DNA of 64,000 nucleotides from Balamuthia mandrillaris (lineage: Eukaryota). Positions 46,859 through 60,060 of the stretch are shown here, one piece after another. The notes beneath the pieces are model-generated. The model had not been told where the DNA came from, searched no databases, and was given only the letters and a program-made list of their open reading frames with translations. The DNA lies in assembly GCA_031835245.2 (NCBI GenBank), contig JAVKOQ020000029.1:248001-312000 (forward strand), in the 5' to 3' direction. The translations under genes and the position numbers were made by a program. Within the stretch, counting starts at the first letter, position 1. Every line of letters begins with the position of its first letter.

Positions 46859-47388
46859 CGTTCTCTGTGCTGTTGGCGACAAAAAACAAGAGCAAGCAAG
46901 CAACACACAAAAAAAAAAATGAATGAATGAGTAATCCAAACAACAAAAGAAGAGAACAAAAGAAAAATCAATCAATCGTCTTTTGTTGTGTTGTTTGGCG
47001 GTTTGCCGCTACGTACTTTCTTTTTCCCCAACACAGAAAAAAAAAATATTCAATTTTTTTTTGTTTTGGTGAGGATGATGATGTGTGTTGTCGACGTTAA
47101 AATGTGAAATTTCAAATTTGTCGACAAAATTCAGGTAGCTGATGTCACTGCATTGTGATGACATCAGCCTTTTTCTCTGCTTTTTCTTTCTTTTTCGCTT
47201 CTCGAAAGGCAGAACGAATTCGCTGGGGCACTACTTTCTTTCAAGAGCTGCAAAAAAGAAAGGGGACGGAAAGGAGGCTTATTGGACCTTGCAGAGAGAC
47301 TCCCGAGGAGACAAAGAGGACTGATTATTTTTCACACAAATAAGTAGTAGCTTTTTTTTCGAAGCACCCTCAATAAACAAACACACAA

Positions 47389-49004
47389 ATGGCAAGCAAC
47401 GGCCAAGATGAGACAGACAATAGCATTCAAATGTGGCGTATGAAAAAGCTGGTTGCCAGCTTGGAGGCCGCAAGGGGGTCTGCTTTTCTCTTCTCTCTTT
47501 GTTTTGCATCAATTCAATATTTTTAACGAGCCTGTTTTTTTTTTTTTAAAAAAAATTGCTCCTCGCTACTACAGAAATGGTACAAGCATGATTTCTCTGA
47601 TCATTCCCCCCCGCGATCAAATCTCGCGGGTGCAAAAGATGTTGGGAGACGAGTACGGCACCGCCTCCAACATTAAAAGCAGAGTGAACCGTTTGTCGGT
47701 GCTGGGCGCCATCACCTCCACCCAACAACGCCTTAAGCTCTACTCCAAGGTTCCTGACAATGGCCTCATTGTTTATTGCGGCACTATCATGACCGATGAA
47801 GGCAAAGAAAAGAAGGTTAACATTGACTTGACCCCATTTAAACCCATCAACACAAGGTTTGTCTTCCCCTTTCTTCTCTCCCTAAGTTTTCCCCTACTGA
47901 TTAACAAAATATAGTTTGTACCTTTGTGACAACAAGTTCCACACGGAGCCTCTTCGAGAGCTGTTGGAGTCTGATCAAAAGTTTGGCTTTATTGTTATGG
48001 ACGGTAGCGGCTGCCTCTTTGGTACCGTCAGTGGCAACACCCGCAACGTCCTTCACAAGATCACTGTCGACTTGCCCAAGAAACACGGCAGAGGAGGTCA
48101 GTCCGCCCTTCGTTTCGCTCGTCTGCGTATCGAGAAGCGTCACAACTATGTGCGCAAAGTCGCTGAGTTGGCCGTCCAATTCTTCATCACCAACGATAGG
48201 GTAATGCTTTTCTTCTTCCCCTCGTTGTTCTCAATGACTTGAATCGCTCACTTCCTTCTCGCTCAGCCGAATGTCGCTGGTTTGGTGCTCTCTGGTTTGG
48301 CTGACTTTAAGAACGAGCTTGCCCAATCCGAGCTCTTCGATCCCAGGCTGAAGGCTGTTGTAGTGGCCATTGTGGACACTTCCTACGGTGGCGAAAATGG
48401 CTTTAACCAAGCCATCGAGTTGGCCTCTGACAGTCTTTCTAACGTGAAGTTTGTCCAAGAGAAGAAGTTGCTCTCCAAGTTCATGGATGAGTTGGCCAAG
48501 GACACTGGCAAGTACGCCATTGGTGTGAAAGAAACTCTCCACGCTTTAGACCTTGGTGCTGTTGAGACTCTTATCGTTTGGGAAAATCTGGACATCGCGC
48601 GTTACGTCTTCAAAAATCAAAACGGAGGTACGTTACTTTATTTGCTTTTATCTCGCTTCTACTAAACAATTTAAACAGAGGAAATTATAATGCATCTCAA
48701 CAAGGAGCAGCAGCAAAAGGAGAGCAACTTTAGAGACAAGGACGGTTCCGAGTTGGAGATCGTTGATCGCATGCCTCTCGTGGAATGGTTCGCCGATAAC
48801 TACAAGAGCTTTGGCGCTGTCTTGGAGTTTGTTACCGACCGCTCTCAGGAGGGCTCCCAGTTTGTGCGCGGCTTTGGTGGCTGTGCCGGTCTCCTCCGTT
48901 ACAAGGTGGACTTTAACCTGTTGGATGAGATAGAAGAGTTCGAGGAGGAGGATGAAGAAGCCAAAGATGATGACTTTGATGACGTTGCTGATTTCTTTAT
49001 GTGA
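47389..49004 (+). CDS. ETF1: Eukaryotic release factor 1
   Basis: [39 protein letters not shown]; stop TGA at 49002-49004. Confidence 0.98.
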
Positions 49005-49484
49005 CTATTCGCTAATGCTCCCCCTCCAACACCCTGCCGCCCCTCACCGTGCCCTCCATCGCCCCTTTTGCCAGCCTCTATCTCTTACCTATTCCCACCT
49101 TTGCCTGCCACTACCACTTCCACTACCACTTCTACTTCTGACGCCATTCTGTTACCACCACTTCAACAAGATCCACCATCAACATCACTACCGCCCTCAT
49201 CATCACCAGCAACGCAGCCCCAATCAGCACCATTACCGTTTTTATCATCAGAGCCAGTGCAAGCTAAAGTGGTAATGGCGGACACTGCTGTTGCTGCTGG
49301 TCATTGTGCTCTCGGCAGCTGCAACGCCTTACTCGTTGCTTTGAGGATGGCACCGCTGCTGCTGTTGATGCTGTACCCAACCAAGAGCTCGGCTTTGTTG
49401 CGACAGCTCCAACACCAACGTAAGCACCATAACAGTGGTACTGCTGCCACGCTTCGCGCAGCAGCCTGTATGGTGATAGACTAA
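49002..49484 (+). other. Candidate eRF1 stop-codon readthrough extension (TGA-CTA plus 159 open codons)
   Basis: ATG TGA CTA TTC GCT...; no in-frame stop until TAA 49482-49484. Confidence 0.65.
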
Positions 49485-49701
49485 GATGATGGCTTTATGA
49501 TCTGATGATATGACGATGTTGAAGAGGAGGAGGAGAGCAGAGAACTTACTCACACAACAGCAGAAAAAAAAAACACACCTTCCTTGTGACAAGGTCATTT
49601 TTATCTTTTAACAACGCCTTGTGTGCTTTTTTTTTTACAAACAAACTTGCAGCTTCAATTTCAGTTTACACCAGAAAGCAAAGAAGTGTGTGATTTTTGA
49701 C

Positions 49702-49900
49702 TCACTGGTGGAGAGCACCACCGCAAGAGCTGCCAGCACCTGCTGTACATCCGTAGCAATGCTTGTCTGTGGCGATGGGTGTTCCCCGAAAGTCAAGGGA
49801 GTCCACCTCCCAAATGCTCGATCTTGTGCTTCGTCCTGCTCCCACTTCAAAAATAAAGGAGCAGATAACAAAATCAGCGAACGAAACACAAGACCACAAA

Positions 49901-49948
<48 letters not shown>

Positions 49949-51086
49949 TACAAGGCATGGACATCATCTGGTTAAAGTCACAATCAAAGAGCCGCCCATC
50001 CCACGAGATGCTAACAGTGTTTTTGCACATAAGGGCATCAACAGTGGCCAGATTGAAGTTATCCACCAATAGTCGCATGTACTCCTCATAACGGCCGGTA
50101 TCCATTAAAAAGTCAGCAAAGCGTCGAATGGGCATGTTCGTGATGGTGAACAGCTGGTTGAATTCGATACCAAAGTGTCGCCGCAGCTCTCTGCGATAAT
50201 CCCCCTCCAGAGCTATTTGCGGAGCAGGCAGCGAAGGCCCCAAAGGATTGTACACCAAGTGCAACAACAACCCCGTTCCTTCCTTGCCATATCCCAACTC
50301 GTTGAGCCGCTTCAGTGCTTGAATGCTCTTCTGGAAGACGCCAGAGCCGCGCTGCTTGTCCACGTTGGCGAATGTGTAGCAAGGCAACGAGGCCACCACT
50401 TGCACCTTTTGCTCAGCCAGGAACTCTGCAGTGTCCTCTTGCCCTGCCTCCAACAGCACCGTCAAATTGCAACGGTCAATGATGTGAGTAATGCCGCGAG
50501 AGCGTGCCCCTAAGATAAGGCGACGAAAGTGGGGATTCAGTTCGGGAGCTCCGCCGGTTATGTCGACGGTGGTGAGGGTAGGAGTAGCCTCCACCAGGTC
50601 CAAAAGACGGTCGATCGTTCGGGATTGCATGTTTTCCGCAACACGAGAAGGACTGGACTCGACGTGACAATGTTGGCAGGTTTGGTTGCACAGAAGGCCA
50701 ATGTTGATTTGCATGATTTCGGTAGCAGTCCGGCAAAAGGTTCGTTTACCTGTGGACTGCTCAATTTTTTGGAGGAAGGAGGGGAGGGAGGAGGACATTT
50801 GGTCGAGCTTGGCTTTGCGTTTGGCTTGCACTCTCGACTCGCGTTGTTCTAGCCGTTTGAGGTAGGAAAGATGGAGCTCTTTATCTTCGTCGCTCAGCTC
50901 ATCAAACTGGAGCGGCCGAAGAGGGGCAGAGACAGAGGATGAGGCCTCTGATGCAAAAGCCCTCACTACGGAGGAAACCGGTAGGGCATCACCACCCAGC
51001 AAAGCATTCGCGGCACGACGATGAGGCCTCTGCCACAGAAAACATCTCCCTGTGACCAAACCGCTCCCTCTTATGTCTCTGTTCAT
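49702..51086 (-). CDS. ArsS-like radical SAM protein (arsenosugar-biosynthesis family), Cys form; one intron; probable mitochondrial presequence
   Basis: QINIGLLCNQTCQHCHVESSP (CxxxCxxC), DITGGAPELN, IDRCNLT, TITNMPI, DCDFNQ, HCYGCTAGAGSSCGG. Confidence 0.9.
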
Positions 51087-58444: not shown

Positions 58445-59877
58445 ATGCAAGAAGCGCAGCAAGTGGAGGCACAAACGGGTGGGGTGGAGAGGTCCATAGT
58501 TCGTTTGGTTTGTTCGTGTCTTCGTCATTTTTTCTTCTTGAAAGAAAAGAACAACAACCAGCAGAAGCACAGAGAGAAGAAAGCGGTTGGAGCGTAAAAG
58601 AAATAGGGGACGGCAACCTCAACTTTGTTTATGTTGTCACTCGTCGCTCCCAAGATGGCCAGCAACAACAACAGGAGCGCAGCCTCGTCGTCAAGCAAGC
58701 GGTCCCTTATGTGCGAATGGTCGGCGAGAGTTGGCCTCTCTCCCCCGAACGGGCGTTCTTCGAGCATGAAGCACTGCGAGAGCAGCATCGACACGCTCCC
58801 GAGCACGTCCCTCGAGTCTTTCATTTCTTCCCTGGCCCTCACCATGCCACCGTCATGGAGTACCTTCCAAACGCCTCCTACCGTTCATTGCGTAAATCTT
58901 TGATTCGGGCACGAAAGCATCCAGCATTGGCTCCACACATGGCTCGTTTTCTCGCTCGCTCTTTGTTCTTCACGAGCGCTTTGTGTGAAGCGAATCGACA
59001 GCAAAACGATCGGTTGAGAGACATCTTTAACGGTAATCAACTCTATCGACTGACCCAAGCGGTCATCTTTGAGGAACCCTTCACACGAAACCACAAGAAC
59101 AACCGATGGACGTCACATCCGCTGCTGGACGAGGAAGTGGCGAGCATCCAAGCCAACGCTGCCCTCCTTCGGCGCGTGGAAGAGGCCAAGACAACATTTC
59201 TGACCCACAAAGAAGCTTTGCTTCATGCCGATCTTCACACCGGATCCGTTCTAGTGGGAGAAGGTGGCGGAGAAACCAAAGTGCTTGACCCAGAGTTTGC
59301 TTTCTTCGGACCTATTGCTTTTGATGTTGGCCAGTTTGTTGGCAACTTGCTTCTCGCTGTATACAGTCAGCGTGGCCTCGTTGAGAAGGAAGAGGAAGAG
59401 GAGAAAAGAAAGGATATGGAAGAATGGATCCTGACCGCCATCGAAGAACTATGGGACCGGTTTCTTGCTCTCTTTCGTGACTTGGTGGAACAGCACTCTT
59501 CCTACGGCTTGCTCTCTTTACCTTTGCATGAAGAGAAAGCTGGCGTGAAAGAAGGAAAAGAAGAGGAAGAAAGGATTTGGGAAGCCTTCACGACGCAGTT
59601 GCTGAAGGATGTGTTGGCGTTTAGCGGGGTGGTCATGATCAGACGGATTGTTGGCATTGCGCATGCGGAGGACATGGAGGTCATTCAACGGGTGGAGAGA
59701 AAGGTTGCCTGCGAGAGAAGAGCGCTTCGTATGGCTCAGCAGTTGATCCTCGCATCTCCTCCTTTTGACGAGAAGGAGAAGATAGAGGAGCAACAAGGCA
59801 CAGGAGGAGGAGCGTCTATGCGTGATGTGCTGATGGATGTTAGACGTTCTCTTCTGTTGGAGGATGAAGCTGACTGA
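58445..59877 (+). CDS. mtnK: S-methyl-5-thioribose kinase; start tentative
   Basis: EIGDGNLNFVY, VKQAVPYVRMVGESWPL, LLHADLHTGS, DPEFAFFGP, RRIVGIAH. Confidence 0.95.
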
Positions 59878-59909
59878 AAAAAAAAGAAAAAGAAAAAGGC
59901 GGTGTTCTG

Positions 59910-60060
59910 ATGGATTAAAAGTCACACAAGTGAGTAAACTCACAAAATGAAAGTTCTTGCGAGGATGTGGTGATGGGGTGGACTAGTGGGCTTCAGAAGC
60001 GCCCATCCACTTTCCCACCAGCACGCCCCCATTGGCTCCATCGGGCAACGCTGCGCAACA
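59910..60060 (-). ncRNA. Putative omegaRNA scaffold overlapping the Fanzor 3' end; boundaries approximate
   Basis: Nested stems 60010-60001 with 59991-59978; hairpin GTGAGT-tt-ACTCAC at 59943-59930; GATGGA (60042-60037) complementary to terminal TCCATC (59914-59909). Confidence 0.6.

Follow-up and report, generated by a model that had tools for sequence, protein, structure and literature searches.

Neurospora crassa erf1 is reportedly autoregulated by readthrough and NMD through a 3'UTR intron, as the title of a FEBS Lett paper by Kurilla et al. from 2020 has it. A 3'UTR of this kind (RT-NMD) has been shown experimentally for seed-plant eRF1-1, whose readthrough extension is unconserved and inactive; according to the same source, UTRs longer than 350-400 nt trigger NMD in plants, low readthrough can protect an mRNA, plants retain a second, unregulated eRF1 gene, and release-factor autoregulation is regarded as the product of repeated convergent evolution (Nyiko et al., 2017; PMC5397192). 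In two genes from giant viruses of Acanthamoeba, Mimivirus R726 and Megavirus mg280, readthrough of UGA-C has been proposed as autoregulation (Jeudy et al., 2012; PMC3521657). In human cells, UGA-CUA alone gives 1.5% readthrough, and readthrough is stronger where the base after CUA is G (Loughran et al., 2014; PMC4132726).

Here we analyse the eRF1 gene of Balamuthia mandrillaris in a window of 64,000 nt, by which we mean the whole stretch of DNA studied (contig JAVKOQ020000029.1, positions 248,001 to 312,000; Table 1). On balance we lean, by a modest degree, towards reading its UGA-CUA stop and its long, intron-free-looking 3'UTR with an open frame as a self-regulating readthrough/NMD sensor of eRF1. 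Termination at the first stop would produce working eRF1 from an mRNA with a tail of about 570 nt, which would be NMD-prone. Ribosomes that occasionally read through would instead terminate at a second stop lying a normal distance from the poly(A) tail, which would shield the mRNA. A shortage of eRF1 would increase readthrough and stabilise the mRNA, an excess would do the opposite, and the extended protein would be a likely by-product. Since no intron was seen, the NMD trigger here would be UTR length. It is from this arrangement that we infer readthrough, NMD of the eRF1 mRNA and a dependence on eRF1 level. Neurospora erf1, again going by the reported title, would share with this reading eRF1 autoregulation by readthrough and NMD and differs by its 3'UTR intron.

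Seed-plant eRF1-1 resembles the Balamuthia gene in its leaky eRF1 stop context, its long 3'UTR, a next in-frame stop near the RNA end (in Balamuthia, near the last base covered by RNA) and an unconserved extension, and differs in its stop context, CAAUCA, and in its NMD trigger, which is a 3'UTR intron (PMC5397192). In the intronic RT-NMD family the 3'UTR intron lies more than 50 nt past the stop. Because none was seen in Balamuthia, we do not count its locus among that family; its 3'UTR likely works in the same manner. Dictyostelium has UPF1 and SMG1 (PMC5709506). The two viral genes share with Balamuthia a UGA-C in a class-I release-factor gene translated in amoebal cytoplasm; their stops, however, are internal, and recoding makes the working factor, as in bacterial RF2, whereas in Balamuthia normal termination makes it (PMC3521657). 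Mammalian UGA-CUA(G) readthrough genes share UGA-CUA but have conserved extension peptides and CUAG, as opposed to CUAU and a neutral-looking extension in Balamuthia (PMC4132726). Our literature search, which was thin on subscription journals, returned no readthrough report for a cellular amoebozoan eRF1 and little on NMD or readthrough in amoebae; the accessible part of the PMC5397192 supplement has no mention of 'Amoeb' or 'Dictyostelium', and the main text of an Acanthamoeba G418 transcriptome paper has no passage on eRF1 or UPF. Kurilla et al. 2020 might hold a wider survey. The logic of self-regulation is already known, and what is new here is the amoebozoan-wide UGA-C at eRF1 and a position-fixed CUCG.

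Table 1. Features of the Balamuthia eRF1 locus, in window positions
Feature	Position	Strand	Remarks
eRF1 coding gene	47389..49004	+	5 exons, 447 aa
eRF1 exons	47389-47477, 47575-47856, 47915-48200, 48267-48627, 48679-49004	+	RNA has GT..AG joints at all four introns
Leaky-type stop, UGA + CUA, next base U	49002..49007	+	TGA 49002-49004, CTA 49005-49007
3'UTR of 567 nt or more, without an observed intron	49005..49571	+	from RNA contigs; likely end about 49570-49630
Open frame, 159 codons	49005..49481	+	from leaky stop to TAA; Pro/Ser/Thr-rich in first half
C-rich 5' arm of predicted long-range stem	49015..49027	+	paired in MFE and centroid; weakly supported
Second in-frame stop TAA, polymorphic	49482..49484	+	TAC in other strains or alleles
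Tandem in-frame TGA TGA	49503..49508	+	second stop for the TAC allele
Purine-rich 3' arm of the same stem	49519..49540	+	just behind the second stop(s); weakly supported
Stop of convergent radical-SAM/DUF3641 gene, bounding the region	49702..49704	-	its X1 RNA contig reaches left only to 49654

The spliced frame of the gene gives an intact 447-aa translation, its product matches Pfam eRF1_3, and its last exon matches, with 100% identity, a protein that carries the name Balamuthia mandrillaris eRF1. A first-pass annotation had read the stop as TGA followed by CTA, and it is indeed found in the context UGA CUA U; among the variants listed for X11, X1, X2 and X9, none falls in the stop or the CUA bases. 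Judged by its sequence, this is a readthrough-promoting type of context and not the plant CARYYA form, with U at the position where G is the stronger base (PMC4132726). An alternative 5' splice site (ATG/GTGA) that would remove the stop had no corresponding joint in the RNA of X11, X1 or X2.

For RNA evidence, four sequencing runs were aligned to 47300-50200. X11 comprises raw reads, about 3% of the run, of which 254 aligned, and a splice joint needed 3 reads; X1 and X2, whose RNA nature is guessed, are represented by contigs, which skip the introns and lose rare variants. Depth in X11 is 13-27x over the extension versus 9-22x in coding bins, falling to 8x and then 3x past 49530, and depth in X1 is 255 in 49164-49483 versus 242 in the coding sequence (CDS). 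In X2, a single contig extends without a break from spliced exons through 48677-49571, and a contig from X8, a soil metatranscriptome, likewise ends at 49571, which is an A-run. X11, X1 and X2 have no joint after 48677, at a modest depth that a rare spliced form could escape. Together, the unbroken RNA and the missing joints give a 3'UTR of at least 567 nt in which no intron is seen. Polyadenylation just after 49004, which the first-pass annotation had named as evidence against its proposal, is not what the RNA indicates, since it continues unspliced to at least 49571. This last covered base lies 87 nt from the second stop in the TAA allele and 66 nt in the TAC allele. The UTR exceeds the plant NMD threshold of 350-400 nt, a threshold that may not apply to amoebae. 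Beyond the covered RNA end, 49594-49652 is intron-like (GT after AAG, a T-run, CAG), with no joint at about 3-8x. The convergent neighbour, at 49702-51053 on the minus strand, encodes a radical-SAM and DUF3641 protein and has an X1 RNA depth of about 15, versus 242 for eRF1.

The first-pass annotation had also pointed to about 700 bp before the next gene's stop, long for this window, and to a frame open for 159 codons to TAA at 49482-49484. Both hold: the eRF1 stop lies 697 nt from the convergent gene's stop, whereas five other convergent pairs within the window are separated by 67, 80, 94, 105 and 132 nt (a sixth was left out because its stop is inside an intron), such that the 3'UTR is no less than four times as long as the widest of those gaps; and the reading frame is indeed open, its second stop being TAC in other strains or alleles. 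Specifically, 49482-49484 reads TAC in X11 (24/24 reads), X9 and X8, and TAA is kept in X2. The TAC allele shifts the second stop to the tandem TGA TGA, so the open frame has 159-166 codons depending on the allele. Before 49482, each of the two remaining frames contains 5 stops. We compared the open frame with dinucleotide shuffles of 49005-49481 (5000 each for the whole stretch and for 160-, 80- and 40-nt blocks), in which about 4 stops are expected and 1.0-1.8% of shuffles are stop-free in frame.

These figures bear on the possibility that the arrangement is incidental, with UGA-C inherited or compositional and a C-rich, stop-poor long UTR open by chance, without regulatory readthrough. The probability of an open frame is only 0.01-0.02 for a locus that was chosen after the fact. 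Among 19 other gene ends in the window, which were hand-picked without an RNA check, two have at least 90 open codons past the stop (92 and 154), so an open frame of such length, taken by itself, is no more than moderately unusual in this window. That set excludes 23919, 37950 and 62117, which are in introns, and 23827, which is antisense, and includes 23607. The longer run, at 59521-59985 on the minus strand, follows a putative TAG gene end and continues for 154 codons antisense into a convergent gene; it is a useful background for long open frames. Against an incidental origin, only one of the 19 ends is TGA-C, none is TGA-CTA, and the UTR is several-fold longer than any other convergent gap. 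Indeed, within the window the stop context and the UTR length are more unusual than the length of the open frame. Further points in favour of chance are that Balamuthia lacks CUCG (see below) and that the comparison of UGA-C among amoebae was made without the stop background of those amoebae; a further point against it is that UGA-C persists at near-saturated synonymous divergence. Taken together, we regard an incidental arrangement as improbable.

The comparison across species draws on a metagenome scan, from which we took the best 80 of 544 confirmed eRF1 loci, found in 26 of the 64 parts of the collection. Eighteen of these 80 fall in one clade with Balamuthia, Acanthamoeba, Luapelamoeba, Clastostelium, Nematostelium and Flamella (SH-aLRT 94.7 in a fast IQ-TREE analysis of 49 of the sequences; the fuller tree was built by FastTree), although these 18 include no DNA of Acanthamoeba or Luapelamoeba. 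The 62 non-amoebozoan loci were reduced to 49 by dropping 5 (intronic stop, frameshift or contig end at the stop) and collapsing 8 identical duplicates. Among these best 80 of 544, the eRF1 stop is UGA-C in 14 of the 18 amoebozoan loci versus 4 of the 49 other eukaryotic loci; the Fisher p of 7e-8 for this enrichment is overstated, because kin are not independent, and the enrichment is measured against the eRF1 genes of other eukaryotes and not against the stop codons that other genes use in those amoebae. UGA-C occurs in both subclades, in 3/3 loci with Clastostelium, Acanthamoeba and Balamuthia and in 11/15 with Nematostelium and Flamella, and L007, the locus nearest Balamuthia among the best 80 of 544, is TGA-CTA. 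The same survey recovers the known plant-clade TAG-CAATCA genes, with 48-123 open codons.

Fourfold sites among the 18 loci have 43% pairwise identity, that is, near-saturated synonymous divergence. The +4 base is C in at least 15 of the 18 loci, whereas none of 60 fourfold sites holds C so often and 3/60 so hold any base; TGA-C would be expected from local composition in 1.35 of 18. TGA by itself is within synonymous drift, with 4 of 37 two-fold A/G sites having G in at least 15/18. The first-pass annotation had proposed comparing orthologues for both the context and the open frame. The former is kept (14/18), but the 159-codon length is not: the amoebozoan extensions run from 15 to 138 codons, with a median of 30 in frame versus 25 out of frame (Mann-Whitney p 0.13). 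Of 13 amoebozoan TGA-C loci, 9 have their longest open run in frame rather than in either of the other two frames, versus 10 of 33 controls; the binomial p of 0.009 comes from a test run after the first, and in-frame openness (Wilcoxon p 0.07) failed two of three tests. Whatever the extension length, 9/13 of these loci have 69-108 nt between the second stop and the contig end. Eleven of the 13 contigs extend just 150-360 nt past the stop, which is short for long-UTR NMD, and because the other amoebozoan contigs are transcripts they are uninformative on introns. We also searched 48700-49700 against X4, X5, X7 and X8, which yielded only short near-identical pieces and no divergent relative over the stop, and scanned viral and prokaryotic-genome collections with an Acanthamoeba-cluster protein, which yielded no placeable amoebozoan locus.

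Several other loci from these searches are of separate interest. An animal-clade eRF1 (L044/L046) has TGA-CTG and only 14 open codons, and its sister L051 has TAA-A. Eukaryote-type eRF1 genes (59-70% identity) occur in bacterial genome records (L082, L083 and L084), where they are likely contamination, and L081 2001-3074, on a 403-kb contig of the viral collection, resembles eRF1 with 40% identity.

The comparison also bears on whether the UGA might be decoded as selenocysteine by means of a SECIS element. Acanthamoeba has Sec machinery (PMC3521657), which lends the idea some plausibility; nonetheless, the UGA stands at the normal eRF1 C-terminus, TAA takes its place in 3 of the 18 amoebozoan loci, and Rfam matches to E 1 over 48900-49800 comprise three below-threshold matches only, with no SECIS family. 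We consider selenocysteine decoding extremely improbable.

Past the stop, CUCG stands at +21/22 nt in 9 of the 17 amoebozoan loci that are long enough, versus none of the 49 others; with every 4-mer and every position allowed, the highest count did not exceed 6 in 2000 shifts or 5 in 2000 shuffles. The loci with CUCG(G) 21-26 nt past the stop are L001, L002, L003, L006, L012, L014, L020, L026 and L028, and L037 has it at +27. As CUCG is found in two reading frames, the signal is at the RNA level. It frequently lies at the 5' base of a predicted stem. We looked for one partner with which it would pair throughout and rejected the idea, since the partner varies among loci. The first 150 nt fold more stably in 13 amoebozoan TGA-C loci (mean z -1.28) than in 33 controls (+0.17; p 7e-4), a contrast that is weaker over 80 nt (p 0.036). 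In Balamuthia, the CUCG motif is absent and the first 150 nt are unstructured (z +1.67). The whole-UTR fold there has z -1.46, with 10 of 100 shuffles as good, and the predicted duplex between 49015-49027 and 49519-49540 has an uncorrected p of 0.033 and is not the best arm along the UTR.

Two fungal-type eRF1 loci, L079 and L058, have TGA-C and 118-124 open codons; a hairpin at +13 to +30 in L079 opens with CUCG (local z -3.8), a structure for which Balamuthia has no counterpart, and L058 (+11 to +26) has UCGG at +21. On sequence grounds these elements may echo the amoebozoan motif. Balamuthia has an in-frame CCN-rich run at 49020-49070, from 15 nt past the stop. Luteoviruses have a C-rich proximal readthrough element, which this run may resemble.

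We tentatively suggest that there could be an Amoebozoa-wide control of eRF1 in which a leaky UGA-C acts with a cis-element of its own (CUCG at +21 and a stem reaching to around the second stop), Balamuthia having an intron-free, long-UTR version; this wider proposal is plausible but, for now, somewhat doubtful. A related possibility, which we think unlikely, is that readthrough is real and selected across Amoebozoa but that feedback operates without NMD, such that ribosome passage or the CUCG/stem element acts on mRNA stability, on the rate of translation or on the fate of the extended protein. The conserved nucleotide motif and the excess folding of the first 150 nt do suggest a cis-element that has a role of its own; in addition, no intron was seen in the 3'UTR, and most amoebozoan UTR contigs are short. 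However, if the mRNA were not rescued, the extra readthrough at low eRF1 would presumably add inactive product, a positive feedback. The NMD model also predicts a second stop at a normal distance from the RNA end, and that is where it lies.

The readthrough/NMD sensor that we favour for Balamuthia treats the extended protein as a by-product; the alternative is that the peptide itself is selected, either as a functional C-terminally extended eRF1 of about 607-614 aa or as a separate 69-codon ORF at 49275-49484. Among the variants listed, 5 of the 6 SNPs in the extension change the peptide, versus 0 of 11 in the CDS, where 11/11 are synonymous; these counts leave 15 further substitutions and 9 indels beyond them, and 3 of the 6 extension SNPs adjoin an indel repeat and may reflect misalignment. 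Under neutrality, the non-synonymous share expected in the extension is 987 of 1431 possible changes, and 5/6 is near it. In favour of selection, the listed extension indels are of 6 and 12 nt, multiples of 3 that keep the frame, but they are inside a short repeat. The coding contrast of the extension frame, 33 versus 15 in stop-free shuffles (p 0.053), likewise suggests some coding character, mostly in the second half (25.0 versus 8.5); it nonetheless falls below all 30 held-out CDS pieces (37-101). The extension matches no Pfam family, and its one weak match (E 3e-4) among 1.84 billion representatives was rejected as a homologue, being to a repetitive protein. Given also that the extension has 15-138 codons in relatives and that the second stop is polymorphic, we consider a selected peptide very unlikely. 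The peptide looks unconstrained, with neutral-looking variation, no real homologue and a polymorphic end, and for the same reasons the extended isoform that the first-pass annotation had entertained finds no support; the open frame is probably a track for readthrough and not a conserved peptide. We note that in the TAC allele 49476-49508 ends in DYDDGFMI, followed by two stops, which resembles eRF1's own C-terminus, DDVADFFM, and may be chance.

What this locus adds is chiefly the conservation across Amoebozoa and the CUCG element, and less the 159 codons of its open frame. With a conserved leaky-type stop and a fixed motif in two amoebozoan branches, a third large lineage joins plants and fungi, and it must be asked again whether the circuit arose once or repeatedly. 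If the version here is intron-free, it would show whether the length of a 3'UTR is enough to drive the circuit, and in amoebae the eRF1 3'UTR could serve as a naturally occurring reporter of both NMD and readthrough. If the Amoebozoa-wide reading is true, readthrough-based eRF1 homeostasis would span plants, fungi and amoebae, and it could already have existed in the ancestor of Amorphea instead of being invented in plants or fungi.
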